This document shows positions 1 through 5,835 of a stretch of DNA of 5,835 nucleotides, in pieces. The position numbers were made by a program, and so were the translations under genes. The notes below the pieces were generated by a model that saw only the letters and a program-made list of their open reading frames with translations, searched no databases and was not told the DNA's origin. Positions within the stretch are counted from its first letter, which is position 1, and every line of letters begins with the position of its first letter. This stretch comes from a virus, in the IMG/VR virus record IMGVR_UViG_3300045988_014863, positions 1 to 5,835 of that record; one strand, written 5' to 3'.

Positions 1-55
1 TGTATCCTTGCCGCCAGATTTCTTCTTTGTGTTCTTGATAATAGTGATCGCCGAG
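1..55. repeat. Terminal direct repeat, copy 1, identical to 5781-5835. This is a circular-genome assembly overlap, and the unit length is 5780 bp.
   Basis: Positions 1-55 and 5781-5835 are identical over 55 of 55 nt. The VP4 reading frame stays in phase across the join (5833-5835 corresponds to 53-55). Confidence 0.95.
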
Positions 56-802
56 GCCCGGCTTTAGACTCATGCATGCAAATGGTTTTGTTTGCCCTAA
101 CTCGTAGTATGCATTTGCTTTCTTTCCGTCTATTTCGTACATTTTTTTTGTAACGTATCCTGCAACATACCTATAGGTTTCTGGAACTGCTTGTGCTATC
201 TGTATTTGACCCATTCCCCATAGGTTTTCTAACCATTTACTGGTATAGTATCCGTTGTGGTGAATCTTGTATAGTTGTTCTAGGTCTGTTGGTCTCCATC
301 CGTATAGAATCATATGATAATGCGGTCTCGCTGTCTGTTCTCCGTACTCCCCCGCTACAAAATAGCGTAATTTGCCCCTGTAAGCCTTTCTGAGACGTTT
401 TAAGAACTTCTGAATATCTTCATACAGTAAAATTTGAACACTGCTAGGGAGCTTCTCTCCCGGTTTCCATGTGTACTGCACCTTTCGCATGATTTCACCT
501 GTTTTTACTATCATGCCTGGTATATGGTCATCATCATAAGTTAGCGTGATAAACCATACTTGTTCTTTCGGATAATCTCTTGCTTCTAGTTCTATTCGTG
601 TTGTCCAATCCTCTCGCTGCCTGATTCTGCATCCGATGCACTGTCCGCATGGTATCAACATGACTTTTGGATTATACATCAAATCTTCATATTTTAGCTG
701 TTTCCCGCTTAGCTCAGAAAAGCGGGCGAGTGAATAAACTCGTCCGCTCTGTTCTTTATTATCCGGGTTGTACAGCCTTATTAATGGCTTGTAACAACTC
801 AT
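1..802 (-). CDS. VP4: Replication initiation protein VP4 (HUH rolling-circle endonuclease, phiX174 A-like), N-terminal 267 codons. The gene continues across the circular junction into 5563-5780.
   Basis: Manual minus-strand translation starting at ATG 802..800 gives MSCYKPLIRLYNPDNKEQSGRVYSLARF...PCGQCIGCR...VWFITLTYDD (motif I)...ARPHYHMILYG (HUH motif II)...YRYVAGYVTKK (motif III, two Tyr three residues apart as in phiX A, YVAKYVNKK). SD AGGTGA sits 9 nt upstream. The ATG overlaps the VP2 stop as ATGA. The ORF track missed this gene because it runs off the window edge. Confidence 0.9.
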   Translation of the reverse strand, partial: MSCYKPLIRLYNPDNKEQSGRVYSLARFSELSGKQLKYEDLMYNPKVMLIPCGQCIGCRIRQREDWTTRIELEARDYPKEQVWFITLTYDDDHIPGMIVKTGEIMRKVQYTWKPGEKLPSSVQILLYEDIQKFLKRLRKAYRGKLRYFVAGEYGEQTARPHYHMILYGWRPTDLEQLYKIHHNGYYTSKWLENLWGMGQIQIAQAVPETYRYVAGYVTKKMYEIDGKKANAYYELGQTKPFACMSLKPGLGDHYYQEHKEEIWRQGY

Positions 803-1683
803 TTCAGATAATCACCTGGCTTTCTTTTTTCACCATAGTTTCCCGTTTTATTCTGCATAGGGTTTTCTGTTTTGTGCCCTACTTTGTTACTGCCGCTTGT
901 CTTTTTCCCTGTTTTATTCGTGATGTCCCCGATTGTTTTGCTTGTTTCGTTATCGATATTCGTTAGCGCTTTCATTAGGCCGTAAGGACTTAGATGTGTT
1001 TCACTTAGCATTTGATTCCAGCTTTGTGAAGCGTTATACCAATCCGATTTACTCCAGCTTTCGCTGCTGTACGAGTTTGGAACAAATCCGTTACTTCTGC
1101 TTACTCCTAGTGCGCTGCTGCTTGCTAGTCCCATGCTTGCTCCGCTGATTGTTCCCGCTGACCCTCCCGGTGTGCTTGCTCCGCCGTTTGCAAATGCCAG
1201 AATCGGGTTTAAACCTGCTTTTTTCATGTCTTCAACAGTTCTTTGATATGCTGTGCTGCTCATATACTCTTGGAACTGTCTGTTTGCTAGTGCTTCGGCG
1301 CTGTTGTAATTCATTGCGGCTGTGTTTTCGATGTGGTTATATATTCCTTGCATGATGGCCTGCATCGTGTTGTATCCCATCTGTTGCAGCATGCTTTTTT
1401 GGTTGTATTTTTGCTGTGCTACGCCCTCTGCGCTTTGGTATCCGTACGCTTGCTGTAAATATTTTGCGATTTGTTCATCATTTGTTCCGGATAGACTTCC
1501 GCTTGCGGACATTCCACCGCCTTGGCCTACGCTTCCGCCTCTGCTTTGCCCTGTTCCTTCATTTCCCCAACCGCCAAAAGTGCCGGTAACGTTTTTTACT
1601 GCGTTTGTTATGCTTCCTATGCTCGTTGCAACATTGCCGAGTATGCTTGTTCCTTTTATAATTGCTCCCCATGGAATTGCCAT
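799..1683 (-). CDS. VP2: VP2 minor capsid / DNA pilot protein (Gly/Ser/Thr/Gln-rich, 294 aa).
   Basis: The ORF lies immediately downstream of VP1 in the conserved VP1-VP2 position. Low-complexity G/S/T/Q/N composition (GGWGNEGTGQSRGGSVGQGGGMSASGSLSG) is characteristic of Microviridae VP2/H-like pilot proteins. Its stop overlaps the VP4 start. Confidence 0.8.
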   Translation of the reverse strand: MAIPWGAIIKGTSILGNVATSIGSITNAVKNVTGTFGGWGNEGTGQSRGGSVGQGGGMSASGSLSGTNDEQIAKYLQQAYGYQSAEGVAQQKYNQKSMLQQMGYNTMQAIMQGIYNHIENTAAMNYNSAEALANRQFQEYMSSTAYQRTVEDMKKAGLNPILAFANGGASTPGGSAGTISGASMGLASSSALGVSRSNGFVPNSYSSESWSKSDWYNASQSWNQMLSETHLSPYGLMKALTNIDNETSKTIGDITNKTGKKTSGSNKVGHKTENPMQNKTGNYGEKRKPGDYLK

Positions 1684-1691
1684 TTTAAAAT

Positions 1692-1712
1692 AGCCGGGTT
1701 TTTGGCCCGGCT
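1692..1712 (-). terminator. Intergenic VP1-VP2 hairpin AGCCGGG-ccaaaaa-CCCGGCT followed by ATTTTAAA. Candidate partial terminator/attenuator, or a structure that bridges the distant SD and the VP2 ATG.
   Basis: A 7-bp GC-rich inverted repeat (1692-1698 pairing with 1706-1712) is followed by a U-rich tract on the sense strand. The only SD, AGGAGG at 1718..1713, lies about 29 nt upstream of the VP2 ATG (1683) with the hairpin in between. Confidence 0.35.
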
Positions 1713-1723
1713 TCCTCCTTTCT

Positions 1724-3406
1724 TTACAGTTTTTCCAGTCCCGGCACGCTGTACAGCGGCATGCAACGAGTAGTATTGTTTATTACTCGGATTGCTCCAA
1801 AGAACTGCGGCTCGTTCTGCTCAATCAAAGTTCTTGCAATTTCGTCTTTTCCTTCGGTCATCCATTCTTGACTGAGTGTTGGCACCTCCTTGTAGTTGTC
1901 TGCATAGTGCCAGAAGTCCAGCGTTCCTTCTGCATTGCTTCGCATTTTACCACTTACCCGGTTCGGCTTCATTCGATAGTCGGCCCAGGCCTCCTGGTAG
2001 CCGAACGTATCATCATCTGTTGCCTTTCCTGTAACCATGATTTCTTTCTTCTTTACTGGCTGTTCGCCTATATTTGCGAACTGCGGAAAGTAGTAGTCCA
2101 GTCTGTCGCTACGGCTCCAGAAGCGTTCCAAGCCCTGCTGGTAGCTGTGATCGTGACGCACGCACATGACGCCGATAACAAAGCCGTGCTCCTCAAAGCT
2201 CTTTGTGAAGGAACTTTCGTTAATGGGTGTTACTGACATTGCACCGGTTTCACCGATAGGTGTATCATTTGCTGCCTGCTGTCCGCTGGTCTGCACGATT
2301 TGGTTGATGTTCACATGATAGCGTCCGCCGCCCAGATATTCCGGCACCTGAACGGTTTTGTCGCTGATGCTTACACCAAAAAGCGCACGTACCTGTTCAC
2401 GGTATCGACTGCCGCCGCGTGCCAGTGCTTCATAATAGTGCTGAACTGCAAAAGCTTGGCGCAACTGGTTGATTGTTGCTGCTTCAATTTCGCTGAGGTC
2501 GGTTGCAATGTATCTTGAGACAGAGACTCCGCCTGTCTGTTCTGTTGAGCCTAGTGCTATGATTGGGTCATTTGCAGTGTTCTGTGTTAGATATGCCGCC
2601 TTTCCACTCATCCAAATTAGAGTTGGGTTCGTTGGCCCGTTGATTCCTTCGTCGTCGTACATTTTTACAGGCGCATTTCCTGTTAGTGCGAGGGTCACTT
2701 CCGGTCCGCGCTGAGGATACGGCATACAGGATGAGAAGTAGTCGTGGAAGCGATTTACCGGCAGGCAGTATCCGCCGCAGATAGCATATTTGAGAATATT
2801 TTCTTTGGATACTTCGCTTTCATTCCCGCTTCCCGCTTCGTATTCTATGTCATCGTCTCCTGTACTGAAGACTGCCGGGTTCCCTACGTTTTGGTCTCTG
2901 AAAAATTCATTCCAGATTTTAATGTATGCTCTGACGGGGAGTGCGTTTATTTTTACGTTTCCCGTTTCTCCCTTTTTGATAATTTTTGCCGGGACTCCCA
3001 TATAGTCTAGAATGCTGTTTGTGTCTGGGTAGTCTCTTGCTGCTCCACCTTTATCGTTATCGATTATGATATTCGGCACTTTGTATGTTTTTGTCGGCAT
3101 CCACGGGTTATCGTCTGCTTCTCCCATGAACCGCTTGAAGTTATCCCATAGGATTCGGTTTGGGCAGTAGAAGTAGTAGAAGTCAATGTATGCATCGTCG
3201 AACACGGGATATTTCGGCGTAGTCATTCGGATGATTGCCGCTGTTTGCACGTTGAACGTATCGCCGGGAAGGACTTCGTCAACGTAGAACGGAATCAGTT
3301 TTCCTGCATCGAAAGTCGTGAGGATATTCTGGTCTCGATTGAACCGCGTTCTACTGACGTGTGTTTCCGGTACCTGGTTAAAGTGTCTTTCATTATTCCG
3401 GTTCAT
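1724..3406 (-). CDS. VP1: VP1 major capsid protein (Microviridae F-like, gokushovirus type), 560 aa.
   Basis: The N-terminus, HFNQVPETHVSRTRFNRDQNILTTFDAGKLIPFYVDEVLPGDTF, is the canonical gokushovirus VP1 signature (compare Chp2 ...TTFDAGYLIPIFCDEVLPGDTF). Size of 560 aa is typical. SD GAGGAAA sits 7 nt upstream. Confidence 0.95.
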   Translation of the reverse strand: MNRNNERHFNQVPETHVSRTRFNRDQNILTTFDAGKLIPFYVDEVLPGDTFNVQTAAIIRMTTPKYPVFDDAYIDFYYFYCPNRILWDNFKRFMGEADDNPWMPTKTYKVPNIIIDNDKGGAARDYPDTNSILDYMGVPAKIIKKGETGNVKINALPVRAYIKIWNEFFRDQNVGNPAVFSTGDDDIEYEAGSGNESEVSKENILKYAICGGYCLPVNRFHDYFSSCMPYPQRGPEVTLALTGNAPVKMYDDEGINGPTNPTLIWMSGKAAYLTQNTANDPIIALGSTEQTGGVSVSRYIATDLSEIEAATINQLRQAFAVQHYYEALARGGSRYREQVRALFGVSISDKTVQVPEYLGGGRYHVNINQIVQTSGQQAANDTPIGETGAMSVTPINESSFTKSFEEHGFVIGVMCVRHDHSYQQGLERFWSRSDRLDYYFPQFANIGEQPVKKKEIMVTGKATDDDTFGYQEAWADYRMKPNRVSGKMRSNAEGTLDFWHYADNYKEVPTLSQEWMTEGKDEIARTLIEQNEPQFFGAIRVINNTTRCMPLYSVPGLEKL

Positions 3407-3788
3407 TGTTTTCCTCGTCCTTTTTTTGTTTGTTTGCTGTCTCTTCCTGCATTTGTTTCAGTTCCATTGCTTTGGCCTGCGCCGTTGCCATCATTGCGTG
3501 GTATTCGTGGATGTTGGTAGGCCATTCGGTGATATCCATAATTTCGTCTGTTTTTGCGCTGTCTGCAAGACTTTTTGCAAATTCCGGGTCAAAGCTTGCT
3601 TTGCGGACAATGTTTTTGATGTCGCATTCGTCTGCATAGCTTTCAATTTCTGCTTGAGTGTCGATTGGCTCTGTTTCAATCAGTTTTTTGTTGCCTTTTT
3701 CGTCCTTCCCCCAGACGTACTGTTTGCGTAGTTTTTCGCCTGAATCCGTAAAGAAGGGCATTCGCTCTTCTTCATATCGCTTATTCAT
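3393..3788 (-). CDS. VP3: VP3-like internal scaffolding protein (131 aa, acidic).
   Basis: It lies immediately upstream of VP1, overlapping it by 14 nt. It is acidic with a Glu-rich C-terminus. It contains an ECDIKNI motif resembling the ECDINNI motif I recall in gokushovirus VP3 proteins. SD GGGAGGG sits 8 nt upstream. Confidence 0.6.
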   Translation of the reverse strand: MNKRYEEERMPFFTDSGEKLRKQYVWGKDEKGNKKLIETEPIDTQAEIESYADECDIKNIVRKASFDPEFAKSLADSAKTDEIMDITEWPTNIHEYHAMMATAQAKAMELKQMQEETANKQKKDEENNEPE

Positions 3789-4020
3789 GCGGTTTTCCCT
3801 CCCATGCTTTATCGTTCATGTTCTGGAACTCGCCGGTTTCATCTTCAAACATTGCCAGTTTGTAACCCACGTAATCGGCCGGAGACTGGCCGATGAACGT
3901 TTTTTCGTCTTTTGCCATTACGTTGCACATCCTCGCAAACGTTTCGTTGTTTTTGCTTTCGCCTACCCATGCGTAGCACTTCGCCACTTTATCGTAGATA
4001 CCATAGTAACTGTGAATCAT
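3781..4020 (-). CDS. Hypothetical small protein, 79 aa (possible VP5 analogue).
   Basis: Strong SD AAAGGAG 7 nt upstream of the ATG. The stop overlaps the VP3 start by 8 nt. No TM segment is apparent. Confidence 0.55.
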   Translation of the reverse strand: MIHSYYGIYDKVAKCYAWVGESKNNETFARMCNVMAKDEKTFIGQSPADYVGYKLAMFEDETGEFQNMNDKAWEGKPHE

Positions 4021-4140
4021 GTTTTTCTCCTTTACAGTCTGATGCCGCCCCTCATGGGTTTCTGGCTGAGATTAATACTCTTCGTTTTGCGTGCCGTCAC
4101 GTTGAACATTCGTTTGTCAGTTCGTCTCGGCATTCTCTGC

Positions 4141-4362
4141 CTATGCTTCATTGTTGTACTCCCTTCGGATTAGTTCCAATTGGATGTCGTTTGCCCATGC
4201 TTTCATTATCCAGATTCGGTCAATGATTTTTTTTGCGTCTTCTAAGTTGGATACTTTTTTAATCATTTTGTATCCAGCTTCAATTTCTTTGTATAACTTG
4301 TCTGCTTCGATTCGTAGGTCTTTTTCGGTCTGGTCTCTCACGTTCCATGTCTTGTGCAGCAT
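4141..4362 (-). CDS. Hypothetical small protein, 73 aa (charged, predicted helical).
   Basis: SD AAGGAG lies 8-9 nt upstream of the ATG. Composition is coding-like and Lys/Glu/Ile-rich. It sits in the sense-strand gene array. Confidence 0.55.
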   Translation of the reverse strand: MLHKTWNVRDQTEKDLRIEADKLYKEIEAGYKMIKKVSNLEDAKKIIDRIWIMKAWANDIQLELIRREYNNEA

Positions 4363-4367
4363 TGTCT

Positions 4368-4472
4368 TTACTCCTTTTCCTTCAGAATGTGGTAAATCTG
4401 GTCCAGCTTTTCCAGCACGGTTTTGATCAGCTGGATTGCTTCTCGCAGATCCTTGACTTTGATTAATGCCAT
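4368..4472 (-). CDS. Candidate unannotated 34-aa ORF (MALIKVKDLREAIQLIKTVLEKLDQIYHILKEKE). It is below the ORF-track size cut-off.
   Basis: ATG at 4472..4470 lies 3 nt after the peptidase stop. SD-like AGGGGG sits about 8 nt upstream. The amphipathic, helix-like sequence fills the gap between the peptidase and 73-aa genes exactly and ends 5 nt before the next ATG. Confidence 0.3.
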   Translation of the reverse strand: MALIKVKDLREAIQLIKTVLEKLDQIYHILKEKE

Positions 4473-4475
4473 AGG

Positions 4476-4862
4476 TTACACCCCCTTTCTGTATCGCTTT
4501 TCACGCACATCAACGTGTGTGAAGTTTGTGTATTTGATTACGCCGCCTTGCTCCATGATTTCATCTGCGTACTTTGCGACTTCTTTGCTGCTGTGTCCTT
4601 TTACTACGATATCCGCCGCCATTCCTTTGCAGTGGTACGAGTTTGGCGCTCCGCCTGCTTTTGCATTCCAGCTTGGCGTGCGGTATCCGCTGTTGATGAT
4701 GACTGGTGCGTTGAAGTGGTTTCGGATTTTTTCCAGTATTTCAATCAGTTCTAAGCAGTACAGGAATTCTTTTGTTCCGTCTTTGCATTTGAATTCTTTT
4801 CCTGTAAAATGCTCTGCCCCTATAAGCTTTCCTTCGTATTCGTCAGCGTAAATCGATCTCAT
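4476..4862 (-). CDS. Peptidase M15 family (VanY / D-Ala-D-Ala carboxypeptidase-like, Peptidase_M15_3/4-type) peptidoglycan hydrolase, the putative lysis enzyme; 128 aa.
   Basis: The zinc-peptidase signature SxHxxGxAxD is present as SYHCKGMAADIV, with SGYRTP upstream and the HxD element (FTHVDV) downstream. Size is about 130 aa. SD AAAGGAAG sits 7 nt upstream. Confidence 0.85.
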   Translation of the reverse strand: MRSIYADEYEGKLIGAEHFTGKEFKCKDGTKEFLYCLELIEILEKIRNHFNAPVIINSGYRTPSWNAKAGGAPNSYHCKGMAADIVVKGHSSKEVAKYADEIMEQGGVIKYTNFTHVDVREKRYRKGV

Positions 4863-4908
4863 GGTGGCTTCCTTTCTGTCTTTGTTATATCATGGCGTTG
4901 TTTTCTTG

Positions 4909-5094
4909 TCAATGCCATATAAGTCTTTTTTCGTTTTCAAGTTGGTTAACTCTTTGTCTGGATAGCTGGCCGCTTCTGTTTTCCCAACATCCTTTCTTCT
5001 TGTTGTAAGTGTATGGATACAGTGGACGCTTGCCAATTCTCGGATTGTAGCATATTAATTTTTTGTTTTCGGTGTATTCGTAGTCGCTTCTCAT
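4909..5094 (-). CDS. Small basic protein, 61 aa (MRSDYEYTENKKLICYNPRIGKRPLYPYTYNKKKGCWENRSGQLSRQRVNQLENEKRLIWH). Putative DNA-binding/packaging protein (J/VP8-like).
   Basis: The true start is the internal ATG at 5094..5092, preceded by SD AAAGGAG (9 nt spacer) and the consensus promoter. The track ORF start at 5148 lies inside the -35 box. Net charge is about +8. Confidence 0.55.
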   Translation of the reverse strand: MRSDYEYTENKKLICYNPRIGKRPLYPYTYNKKKGCWENRSGQLSRQRVNQLENEKRLIWH

Positions 5095-5119
5095 GTTGTT
5101 TATCTCCTTTTCTGGTTTT

Positions 5120-5148
5120 ATTATAACACTATTCTTTACCTTTGTCAA
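5120..5148 (-). promoter_or_regulatory. Near-consensus sigma70 promoter on the sense (minus) strand: -35 TTGACA (5148..5143), 17-bp spacer, extended -10 TGtTATAAT (5128..5120), with an A-rich UP-like tract upstream (5172..5149).
   Basis: Plus-strand tgtcaa at 5143-5148 and attata at 5120-5125 are separated by exactly 17 nt. TG lies 1 nt upstream of the -10. The sense strand reads GGAAAAGTTTCAAAAAAGAC immediately upstream of the -35. An SD and ATG follow about 12 nt after the predicted TSS. Confidence 0.6.
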
Positions 5149-5174
5149 GTCTTTTTTGAAACTTTTCCTAAATG

Positions 5175-5215
5175 GTCATGCGGTCGGCGCTGGTGCGCCG
5201 AATGAAAAGCATGAC
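5175..5215. repeat. Bipartite imperfect hairpin GTCATGC-ggt-CGGCGC-tggt-GCGCCG-aatgaaaa-GCATGAC, upstream of the promoter.
   Basis: Outer 7-bp and inner 6-bp inverted repeats were verified by reverse complementing. It lies about 26 nt upstream of the -35 box on the sense strand. Confidence 0.4.
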
Positions 5216-5256
5216 GTAACTTTCGGCTTTCGCTCGCCGGACGGCCTTTATTAGTT

Positions 5257-5418
5257 TTCAACATTTTCAACATAGTTTTCAACATTTCAACATTGTTAAA
5301 CTTTAGCACAACAGAGTGTTTCAACATTTCAACAAGTTTTCAACAAAGTTTTCAACATTGTTTTTTGTTTGTTTTTAACGCTCTAACGTTTTAAAATTAT
5401 ACTTTTCAACTTTTCAAC
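5257..5418. repeat. Iteron array: ten direct copies of TTTCAACA(T) in three clusters (4+4+2), with 8-12 bp phasing inside each cluster.
   Basis: TTCAAC cores sit at 5257, 5266, 5278, 5286, 5320, 5328, 5339, 5351, 5405 and 5413, all in the same orientation. This is a non-coding AT-rich region between the VP4 terminator and the promoter. Confidence 0.7.
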
Positions 5419-5455
5419 ATACCCTACTACTACGACTACAACAAGTTATATTATA

Positions 5456-5506
5456 ATACGTGCGCACGCGTGCGCGTGTAGTTTTCGCGTGCACGTGTGT
5501 GCGCGA
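5456..5506. repeat. Two GC-rich alternating purine-pyrimidine palindromic tracts. The first spans 5456-5480 and contains the perfect 14-bp palindrome GCGCACGCGTGCGC at 5462-5475. The second spans 5486-5506 and contains the palindrome CGTGCACG. They are flanked by an AT-rich tract (5441-5457).
   Basis: Perfect R-Y alternation runs over 25 nt and over 21 nt. The palindromes were verified by reverse complement. The two tracts are also partly complementary to each other. They are embedded in otherwise AT-rich DNA. Confidence 0.6.
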
Positions 5507-5518
5507 TTAGATTAATAA

Positions 5519-5550
5519 AGCCCAGTACTCTACTTGATAGGTACTGGGCT
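5519..5550 (-). terminator. Hairpin AGCCCAGTAC-(12-nt loop)-GTACTGGGCT followed by TTTATTAAT on the sense strand, 13 nt after the VP4 stop. Putative rho-independent terminator ending the genome-long transcription unit.
   Basis: A 10-bp perfect inverted repeat (5519-5528 pairing with 5541-5550). A U-rich tail (revcomp of 5509-5518) lies immediately 3' on the sense strand. Confidence 0.45.
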
Positions 5551-5562
5551 AGGTGACACCAA

Positions 5563-5835
5563 CTATAAAATACCACGCTTTTTCGTTTGTTTTTTGGTGA
5601 CACGTTCTTTTGTCTCTAGGACTGTCTTGTAGTCCTGTGCTTCTAGCTGTAGACGCTTCTGCTCTATGGCGTTTTTCTGTCTGTTTTGCTTAATTCTCCA
5701 CAATCTTTGTGGGTTTTCCGCTTCCATCTGCTTTTCGTAGTATCTTGGAATCTGCGCTTGTTTTCCGTTTGTGCATTGAATGTATCCTTGCCGCCAGATT
5801 TCTTCTTTGTGTTCTTGATAATAGTGATCGCCGAG
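5563..5835 (-). CDS. VP4: VP4 replication initiator, C-terminal part (72 codons plus stop; 5781-5835 duplicates 1-55). The full protein is 339 aa.
   Basis: The frame is continuous with 1..802 across the junction. The tail reads ...QCTNGKQAQIPRYYEKQMEAENPQRLWRIKQNRQKNAIEQKRLQLEAQDYKTVLETKERVTKKQTKKRGIL and ends at TAG (5565..5563). This Lys/Arg/Gln-rich tail is typical of gokushovirus VP4 C-termini. Confidence 0.85.
   Translation of the reverse strand, partial: LGDHYYQEHKEEIWRQGYIQCTNGKQAQIPRYYEKQMEAENPQRLWRIKQNRQKNAIEQKRLQLEAQDYKTVLETKERVTKKQTKKRGIL
5781..5835. repeat. Terminal direct repeat, copy 2 (a duplicate of 1-55 from linearising a circle).
   Basis: Exact 55-nt identity with the window start. 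Confidence 0.95.

Follow-up and report, generated by a model that had tools for sequence, protein, structure and literature searches.

What is done by two GC-rich blocks of alternating purines and pyrimidines that stand beside an AT-rich tract in the genome of a small single-stranded DNA (ssDNA) phage? The question is raised by IMG/VR virus record IMGVR_UViG_3300045988_014863, positions 1 to 5,835 of which make up the stretch analyzed here (5,835 nt in all, hereafter the window). An initial annotation of the window flagged 75 nt at positions 5436-5510 as a candidate ssDNA origin structure, comparable to the complementary-strand priming sites of phiX-type phages. By megablast the genome groups with gokushoviruses of human, pig, and monkey faeces. 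No other ssDNA phages are as widespread as gokushoviruses in viromes from the gut and the environment, yet hardly any have been cultured; we know of no gokushovirus in which a replication origin has been mapped. The blocks described here are a real, selected, structure-forming element. The reading that we favor, with a probability of roughly 0.45, is that these purine-pyrimidine (Pu-Py) blocks are a structured boundary, specific to the phages, of an unwinding module that is of oriC type and depends on DnaA, and of which the flagged 75 nt would be the distal half. Every long open reading frame (ORF) lies on the - strand of the window, so that the - strand is the coding-sense strand and the + strand is antisense to all genes; among these ORFs is VP4, the rolling-circle initiator (rep) gene. 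Coordinates are collected in Table 1, and L numbers designate individual loci.

Similarity to bacterial chromosomal origins

In bacteria, the oriC basal unwinding system (BUS) consists of a DnaA box with at most two mismatches, which usually has another box in tandem with it, followed by a gap of about 4 bp and at least three DnaA-trios of the form 3'-GAT-5' (Pelliciari et al. 2021, PMC8287927). The top strand of Bacillus subtilis is given as TTATCCACA AATCCACA GGCC CTACTATTACTTCTACTA (Table S1 of PMC8287927). The window reads TTTTCAAC TTTTCAACA TACC CTACTACTACGACTAC, with the same order, orientation, and spacing. The copy of TTTTCAACA in the tandem pair has two mismatches to TTATCCACA, within the limit for a BUS box. 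The trio region reads CTA CTA CTA CGA CTA CAA CAA G on the + strand; on the - strand the trios (3'-GAT GAT GAT GCT GAT-5') are followed by 5'-TGTTGAAAA, which is the polarity of the published table. At least three trios are thus found on the strand that carries a 5'-TGTGGATAA-type box sequence 3' of them, and the window also has the tandem second box, the gap of about 4 bp, a spacer of no more than 16 bp, and an AT-rich region beyond the trios.

The tandem pair is the end of a longer array. The pattern TTWTNMACA has six exact matches within 165 nt, all on the + strand, where 1.25 are expected. Five further exact copies of TTTTCAACA and several 8-mer variants precede the tandem pair, and the array comprises about 11 box-like 9-mers in total, all pointing the same way. 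A conserved near-palindrome, TTTCAACATTGTTAAAC (5285-5303), forms the sole inverted box-like pair in the array and is kept in six aligned relatives.

Relatives were assembled by two routes. A blastn search returned 71 phage records, 12 of which were aligned, and an IMG/VR scan for a neighboring hairpin motif returned 120 loci; filtered to microvirus-sized genomes and de-duplicated, the latter yielded 90 distinct regions (window included) with the hairpin and GTGACAC. At the box positions, relatives carry either TTTTCCACA, with one mismatch, or the perfect DnaA box TTATCCACA. In 50 of the 90 regions a box with no more than two mismatches to this Escherichia coli consensus is present, nearly always at the 4-nt gap, and two or more CTA triplets are present in 81, almost all of them with a 4-nt gap after the box. 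The trio string CTACTACTACGNCTACAACAAG is nearly invariant. The tract beyond it is always AT-rich, and its sequence and length vary (about 12-13 or 22-27 nt).

The string TCMACNTTTYMACNNNNNCTACTACTAC was scanned in 185,579 bacterial genomes, in which about 0.5 chance matches are expected, and is found at no fewer than 120 bacterial loci (Acidobacteriota, Negativicutes, Clostridia, Chloroflexota, Cyanobacteria, and other phyla). In all five loci that were checked, dnaA and/or dnaN lies directly beside the match: both genes in full in Selenomonas ruminantium (L196) and Ruminococcus (L223), a DnaA C-terminal fragment with dnaN in a member of the Eubacteriales (L188), dnaA in a member of the Veillonellaceae (L176, checked for dnaA only), and dnaN in a member of the Clostridia (L254, checked for dnaN only). 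Among the matches listed, the scan of bacterial genomes yielded oriCs and not phage copies. The 40 nt past the bacterial trios have a mean A+T content of 79% in the 120 matches listed. By this match to sequences at the side of dnaA and dnaN, the AT-rich tract of the phage occupies the position of the unwinding element in a DnaA-type origin module. A GC-rich alternating run within 200 nt past the trios is found in one of the 120 bacterial matches listed, which marks the blocks as a phage-specific addition. The exception, a Clostridia metagenome-assembled genome (MAG) from water-buffalo caecum (L229), has ACGCGTGCGTGTGCGTGCG about 37-56 nt past the trios, after the AT-rich region; the same contig carries a yidC-family gene.

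Individual box and trio variants also recur in bacteria, as a comparison of oriC loci L254, L203, L188, L210, L223, L176, and L158/L208 indicates. A Clostridia MAG (L254) has at its oriC exactly the tandem pair of the window, TTTTCAACTTTTCAACA, and ATTCAACATTTCAACA of a second phage clade equals the sequence at an Oscillospiraceae oriC (L203). The trio string CTACTACTACGACTAC is that of a Veillonellaceae oriC and is also found in Selenomonas, and boxes of the TTTTCAACA type are present at oriCs of Clostridia and Ruminococcus. Such clade-specific variants may be usable as a signal for host prediction.

Several features distinguish the window module from a bacterial BUS: its setting is an ssDNA phage of 5.8 kb, where it adjoins a rolling-circle rep gene, about 10 further unidirectional boxes precede it, its AT-rich tract is short (about 13 nt), and two GC-rich alternating blocks follow it. 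It is flanked by VP4 and small ORFs rather than by dnaA or dnaN, and its location in a phage makes it an oriC-like module, not an oriC. With these differences noted, the module is very probably a copy of the oriC basal unwinding system, and its dependence on DnaA is predicted from this likeness. The same sequences suggest that these small ssDNA phages use the DnaA of their hosts. In the limited full-text collection that was searched, no paper links Microviridae with DnaA boxes.

Sequence and conservation of the purine-pyrimidine blocks

The initial annotation described the element accurately in most respects. The AT-rich stretch TTATATTATAATA is present, as is the perfectly alternating run of 25 nt with its 14-bp perfect palindrome GCGCACGCGTGCGC (5462-5475) and ACGCGT core (5466-5471). 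The second alternating tract also exists, with a length of 20 nt rather than the 21 originally given (G5505 and A5506 are both purines). Chance is a poor source of such runs: in 300 dinucleotide-preserving shuffles the longest alternating run averages 12.8 nt (maximum 22) and the second longest 11.5 nt (maximum 16), and no shuffle reproduces runs of 25 plus 20. Two commonplace identities for the region were considered and set aside. The AT-rich tract has TATAAT-like hexamers on both strands without an acceptable -35 element, and the sole terminator-like match of a terminator scan is a part of block 1 on the + strand.

The non-coding region is kept more widely than the genes. All 12 aligned BLAST relatives have two GC-rich alternating blocks of different sequence in the same place. 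Under strict criteria (each block at least 14 nt and at least 60% G+C, spacer no longer than 12 nt), 77 of the 90 regions have two blocks, 8 have one, and 5 have none; at least one block is therefore retained in 85 of 90 while coding regions of relatives have diverged to about 72-88% identity. The block pair is found in 58 distinct versions, with block lengths of 14-26 nt. The spacers of relatives measure 0-8 nt and are mostly pyrimidine (c, t, tt, tat, at, gctttt, and others), and they always break the phase of alternation. Within blocks, alternation is strict, and CG steps are more frequent than TG/CA steps and far more frequent than TA steps. Relatives of the same architecture differ in their blocks by 311 transitions and no transversions, at a per-site divergence (0.11) as high as that of the flanks, where transversions outnumber transitions. 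Since only unbroken runs qualify as blocks, this count is in part circular, and it is used here only together with the retention in 85 of 90, which is free of that circularity.

These data bear on the proposal that the blocks are non-functional simple sequence, generated by CG/TG slippage or left as recombination scars and carried along by functional neighbors. Low-complexity composition, deletion variants (L063, L120, L121, and L123), and the modular surroundings with their frequent insertions would all suit such an origin. The persistence of blocks in the same place in 85 of 90 relatives despite coding divergence, the confinement of their lengths to 14-26 nt, the lack of interrupting transversions at flank-level divergence, and a complementarity between blocks that exceeds its null (see below) do not, and the proposal is already disfavored and extremely unlikely. 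In two of the deletion variants (L123 and L063) the loss of blocks looks like a clean deletion; in L120 a mini-hairpin, AGCGTttttgcACGCT, is found where the blocks would sit. The block-less relatives may be viable variants, defective genomes, or products of assembly collapse at a GC hairpin.

The position of the blocks is fixed on one side. The GC core of block 1 mostly starts 34-35 or 44-49 nt past the first trio, whereas anything from 17 to about 155 nt separates block 2 from the hairpin on the VP4 side, and various hairpin modules are inserted in this interval. This difference argues that the blocks are anchored to the side of DnaA and the DNA-unwinding element (DUE). Modularity of the non-coding region is seen in perfect GC-rich hairpins inserted in relatives, such as GCGACAGCCCCATGAGCTGGGGCGCTGTCGC and AAGGGGGAGACC...GGTCTCCCCCTT. 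Insertions are found between block 2 and the hairpin in L003, L007, L040, L058, L106, and L031, and between the AT tract and block 1 in L004, L012, and L022-type relatives. In many relatives, moreover, CTAYTTGATAGAC is repeated upstream of the hairpin in a second copy that is unpaired.

Strand-specific folding of the block pair

The two tracts had been described as partly complementary, and the strand on which they are read determines whether this complementarity yields a structure. On the + strand, DNA folding of the window gives a 20-bp stem with 15 Watson-Crick and 5 G.T pairs (-21.2 kcal/mol, z-score -2.6). On the - strand, A.C mismatches take the place of the five G.T pairs, and shuffled sequences fold equally well (z -0.16). 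In five further lineages, the + strand forms one uninterrupted stem of 19-22 bp (ensemble frequency 0.69-0.93, z -2.6 to -4.4) and the - strand forms ill-defined folds, with z near 0 in three; over six lineages, the window included, coding-sense folds are no better than shuffles in four. The comparisons of both strands and of relatives that the initial annotation had proposed thus bear out a conserved, structure-forming tract in the replication-control region of an ssDNA phage, with a stable hairpin on the + strand and a poor fold on the - strand.

Pairing between the blocks was also compared with that expected from alternation itself. In each of the 58 versions, block 1 was matched to block 2 in the register that pairs best, and in the null (n = 300) C and T were shuffled among pyrimidine sites and A and G among purine sites, so that alternation and composition were kept. 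On the + strand, C:G pairs number 793 (null 702), A:T pairs 113 (null 101), G.T pairs 232 (null 257 +/- 8), and A.C pairs 16 (null 55 +/- 4.5, with a minimum of 42 in the 300 replicates). The A.C pair is the sole type of mismatch that is avoided on this strand, and complementarity between the blocks exceeds what alternation alone gives. Palindromy within blocks is a weaker signal. The folding strand is the complement of the - strand that carries the DnaA-trios, and it would for this reason be the free strand in a bubble opened by DnaA.

A different function is suggested by the rolling-circle plasmid pMV158, in which a nick hairpin is accompanied by a distant, repeated bind locus (PMC1851628). 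By analogy, the blocks could be a repeated protein-binding unit, either a bind locus for VP4 (compare the RepB repeats of pMV158) or a site for a host factor. The two units are of similar length, they are exact direct repeats in four relatives, and they lie between the hairpin of the rep gene and the rest of the origin region. Sequence conservation is poor for a sequence-specific site, however: there are 58 versions, and CG, TG, and CA swap at most positions. The origins of pMV158 and pC194 differ in this regard, as the blocks are not sequence-conserved repeats and have no fixed spacing to the hairpin, their distance from which is highly variable. Measured over the alternation null, inverted pairing (z 1.6) is stronger than mean direct-repeat similarity (z 0.9). 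A repeated binding unit is very unlikely on this evidence.

The strand asymmetry also bears on the initial proposal of a complementary-strand (stage I) origin, at which hairpins of the packaged strand are recognized by primase, RNA polymerase, or a PriA-type primosome. The region is a GC-rich hairpin cluster and makes up part of the principal non-coding stretch of an ssDNA phage. Relatives have additional perfect hairpins inserted beside the blocks, and six lineages show a well-defined hairpin on the + strand. The complementary-strand origins of ssDNA replicons (phiX174 n'/primosome-assembly site (PAS), G4 oric, M13 (-), and the single-strand origins (sso) ssoA/ssoU) are likewise non-coding GC-rich hairpins whose structure is conserved more than their sequence. 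They differ from the element in that its stable fold is on the complement of the coding-sense strand. The predicted stable hairpin forms on the gene-antisense strand only; on the coding-sense strand, the presumed virion strand, the 232 G.T pairs become A.C mismatches and the 16 A.C become G.T, and z is near 0 in three of the five further lineages. The prediction of a fold in packaged ssDNA holds only if the packaging polarity is unconventional; if the + strand were packaged, the fit would be good, and the composition at degenerate sites and the + strand ACTTGATA discussed below point in that direction.

Three further observations count against priming. Strict Pu-Py alternation is unnecessary for a priming hairpin and is not, to our knowledge, a feature of complementary-strand origins. 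The blocks are anchored to a DnaA/DUE module, which acts on duplex DNA. An Rfam scan of positions 5000-5835 at a permissive threshold gave only a chance miRNA match (E 0.07), and no known sso or PAS motif was matched, RS_B, CS-6, and n' sites having been looked for by inspection only. A literature search on gokushovirus origins, hairpins, DnaA, and strand polarity found nothing on this element and one relevant paper, which describes generic intergenic hairpins in small microviruses; such hairpins have been proposed as negative-strand origins (PMC9865509). What stands of the phiX-type proposal is a conserved structured element in an ssDNA phage; its context is of the oriC type and not phiX-like. 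A packaged-strand priming site is fairly unlikely, and less likely than a boundary of the DnaA module.

Alternation itself is a property that Z-DNA would explain, a conformation that the initial annotation had also raised for the double-stranded form. The two alternating runs of the window (25 and 20 nt), like those of relatives (14-26 nt), exceed the uninterrupted GC-rich alternation of about 12 bp or more typical of Z-DNA tracts. The transition from B to Z is physically plausible: a crude two-state estimate places it at a superhelical density (sigma) of about -0.04 per block in a 5.78-kb circle. The blocks might then be purely Z-DNA tracts of the supercoiled replicative form (RF), acting beside the unwinding element as a sink or sensor of supercoils, or as a structural shield of the origin from VP4 read-through transcription, with hairpin potential as a by-product of (YG)n composition. 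In support of this proposal, strict alternation is the conserved property and is kept through transitions only, and (YG)n tracts pair with themselves via G.T, so that some hairpin potential is automatic. It leaves unexplained the extra complementarity between blocks (16 A.C pairs where 55 are expected), the constant layout of two out-of-phase blocks around a pyrimidine-rich spacer, and the mini-hairpin of L120, and Z-DNA formation would relax supercoils and so oppose the opening of the adjacent AT-rich tract. The d(CG/TG)n tracts of plasmids and phage RFs that form Z-DNA are similar in alternation, GC-richness, and length (20-25 bp). They differ in that the present blocks are two, out of phase, mutually complementary, and fixed beside a DnaA unwinding element, an arrangement for which we know of no precedent. 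As the sole function of the blocks, Z-DNA is unlikely; selection may act on it in addition to the hairpin, or may even act mainly on it.

A model for origin opening and points against it

The favored reading, a structured boundary of a DnaA-type module, follows the order of elements on the + strand: the box array with its tandem pair (5403-5419), the 4-bp gap, the trios (5424-5445), the AT tract, and the blocks (5456-5505). Host DnaA would bind the double-stranded boxes and polymerize on the - strand trios, as in the bacterial basal unwinding system, and the AT-rich tract would melt as a result. The Pu-Py blocks, by their position, would bound the bubble. They form an imperfect inverted repeat that folds, by computation, on the + strand only (19-22 bp), which is the strand that DnaA would not hold. 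Folding could lock the opening and create a defined junction between single strand and duplex, and the unfoldable - strand would then stay open to helicase and primase, or VP4 might reach the nearby hairpin. In the supercoiled RF, the blocks could alternatively flip to Z-DNA, which would explain the conservation of strict alternation itself.

A number of points weigh against this model. Bacterial oriCs function without such blocks. Melting about 45 bp of duplex with a G+C content of about 80% would be costly, and supercoiled DNA would form Z-DNA more easily than a mismatched cruciform. The hairpin does not need strict Pu-Py alternation and by itself leaves it unexplained. The excess of G.T over A.C partly reflects a genome-wide excess of T over A on the + strand, and the additional depletion of A.C, about 3-fold, comes from sequences that are phylogenetically related. 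Blocks are missing in 5 of 90 relatives (L063, L120, L121, L123, and L080), mostly by deletion, so that either the blocks are dispensable or these five contigs are defective or mis-assembled. In L033, L051, L096, and L116 the blocks are exact direct repeats of 14-23 nt, which points to concerted evolution by duplication or conversion and also fits a repeated binding unit.

Resemblance to the phiX174 origin and the adjoining hairpin

The initial annotation noted the motif AACTTG at 5447..5442 on the - strand, next to the AT-rich tract, and compared it with the key sequence of the phiX174 origin, with the caution that the match could be coincidental. The motif is there, and the caution was justified: AACTTG has four copies in the genome, lies here within the trio string, and is altered in one clade. 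The phiX174 origin (CAACTTG/ATATTAATAACACTATAGACCAC) lies inside gene A and is nicked within CAACTTG/ATA at position 4305/4306. The window resembles it in having AACTTG beside an AT-rich tract on the coding-sense strand. It differs in that no more than six nucleotides match, with TTG next where phiX174 has ATA, that the AT-rich tract precedes AACTTG on its 5' side instead of following it on the 3' side, and that the region is non-coding; no 30-nt homology to the phiX174 origin was found in the window. The oriC-type context argues that the AT-rich tract is a DnaA-dependent unwinding element rather than a phiX-origin spacer.

A closer match to the phiX174 nick core is found in the hairpin between the blocks and VP4 (stem AGCCCAGTAC/GTACTGGGCT, loop TCTACTTGATAG). 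The + strand of its loop contains ACTTGATA (5532-5539), identical to the nick core in 8 of 8 positions and unique in the genome; in contrast to phiX174, this 8-mer is on the antisense strand, in a hairpin loop, and outside genes. The pC194 origin likewise contains CTTGATA, but the strand on which CTTGATA lies in the window conflicts with the conventional polarity. The hairpin folds well on both strands (z -5.2 and -5.0). Its loop is invariant in the 12 BLAST-derived relatives and its stem covaries (C:G to A:T, T:A, and G:C), with 7 G.T and no A.C among the non-Watson-Crick pairs of + strand stem variants. A role as a mere terminator was set aside: the weak - strand T-run is not present in all relatives, and an invariant loop argues for more. 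A second GGTGACAC is found at 5596-5603.

The characterized gokushoviruses Chp2, phiMH2K, and SpV4 share neither the DnaA-box array nor the hairpin. In SpV4 (L135), a weak hairpin (CTAAACTTG ATAAG CAAGGTTTAG, z -2) at 1637-1660 on the T-rich coding strand contains AAACTTGATAAG; VP1 begins about 100 nt downstream. In phiX174, SpV4, phiMH2K, and the window, CTTGATA lies on the strand that is T-rich at 4-fold degenerate sites, a coincidence confounded by composition.

Polarity of the packaged strand

The fate of the ssDNA-origin proposal depends on which strand is packaged, as the blocks fold on the + strand and poorly on the conventional virion strand. At 4-fold degenerate sites of the coding strand, T makes up 57-65% in phiX174, 51-53% in Chp2, and 65% in SpV4. 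The VP1, VP2, and VP4 genes of the present genome are the mirror image of these, with 44-58% A and 11-14% T, and resemble phiMH2K, with 46-51% A. The T excess of ssDNA phages has been attributed to C-to-T deamination of the single strand (PMC4032129).

This skew is one of four signals that point to a single-stranded + strand and look mutually independent. The others are the Pu-Py hairpin that tolerates G.T and avoids A.C, the 7 G.T and 0 A.C in stem variants of the adjoining hairpin, and the orientation of the nick core ACTTGATA in its loop. A polarized mutation spectrum was considered as a further line of evidence and rejected as not independent, since at equilibrium it restates the composition skew. 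Clusters of at least 93% identity were sought among 85 genomes and yielded one cluster of three genomes; among these, at 93% identity, C>T changes at + strand 4-fold sites number 30 of 101 and G>A changes 4 of 83.

If the + strand, antisense to every gene, were the one that is nicked, displaced, and packaged, the phage would be a negative-sense microvirus. DnaA would open the module and hold the - strand, and the + strand would fold both the Pu-Py hairpin and the hairpin that presents CTTG/ATA to VP4. This would contradict the accepted positive-sense polarity of Microviridae, of which we know no test in this clade, and we consider a negative-sense polarity distinctly improbable.

Genome organization

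The contig ends in an exact 55-nt direct repeat (window positions 1-55 are identical to 5781-5835), which indicates a complete, circularly permuted circular genome of 5,780 nt. In addition to the genes of Table 1, the - strand has VP3 and small ORFs. The VP4 translation (339 aa) has HUH (HYH) and YxxxY (YVAGY) motifs, spotted by eye, which we take to be phiX A-like. The 128-aa ORF is annotated as a peptidase M15 in relatives and is probably a lysis enzyme. The flagged element is within the sole large non-coding region, from about 5095/5328 to 5562, which on the coding strand is directly 3' of VP4. On the - strand, 5148..5120 fits the sigma-70 promoter consensus perfectly (12/12; TTGACA-17-TATAAT, preceded by a TG); this promoter follows the box array and precedes the small ORFs. 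It is the sole strong promoter found, and it points to a host with canonical sigma-70 promoters rather than to Bacteroidota.

Table 1. Positions of the origin-region elements and genes in the window
Feature	Position	Strand	Remarks
DnaA-box-like 9-mer array	5255-5419	+	One orientation; six exact TTTTCAACA plus TTTCAACA variants
Tandem DnaA boxes TTTTCAAC + TTTTCAACA	5403-5419	+	TTTTCAAC at 5403-5410 abuts TTTTCAACA at 5411-5419
Gap TACC, 4 bp	5420-5423	+	Between boxes and trios; bacterial BUS gaps are GGCC or GCCC
DnaA-trio-like triplets	5424-5445	-	3'-GAT GAT GAT GCT GAT GTT GTT-5'
AT-rich tract TTATATTATAATA	5446-5458		Candidate DNA-unwinding element, downstream of trios
Pu-Py block 1	5456-5480	+	25-nt alternating run; GC-rich core 5459-5478; 5' arm of hairpin
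Spacer GTTTT	5481-5485	+	Pyrimidine-rich, breaks phase; forms hairpin loop with TA (5479-5480)
Pu-Py block 2	5486-5505	+	20-nt alternating run; 3' arm of hairpin
Hairpin, stem AGCCCAGTAC/GTACTGGGCT, loop TCTACTTGATAG	5519-5550	+	Candidate VP4 nick site or VP4 terminator
Conserved GGTGACACC	5552-5560		Adjoins hairpin; between hairpin and VP4 stop codon
VP4, rolling-circle initiator	5563-5780 + 1-802	-	Spans circle junction; stop codon 5563-5565
VP2	799-1683	-	
VP1	1724-3406	-	
128-aa ORF	4476-4862	-	Peptidase M15 in annotation of relatives

Implications for gokushovirus biology

If the DnaA-type reading is true, the element would represent a new way for a rolling-circle phage to couple its replication to the host initiator. 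The sequence of the module tracks oriC variants of Clostridia, Oscillospiraceae, and Negativicutes, and hosts could perhaps be predicted from it. Because of the + strand signals, the unquestioned assumption that this clade is positive-sense can be put to a direct test, and the Pu-Py double block would offer a well-delimited element, open to mutation, with which to study non-B DNA, hairpin or Z-DNA, in the opening of origins.

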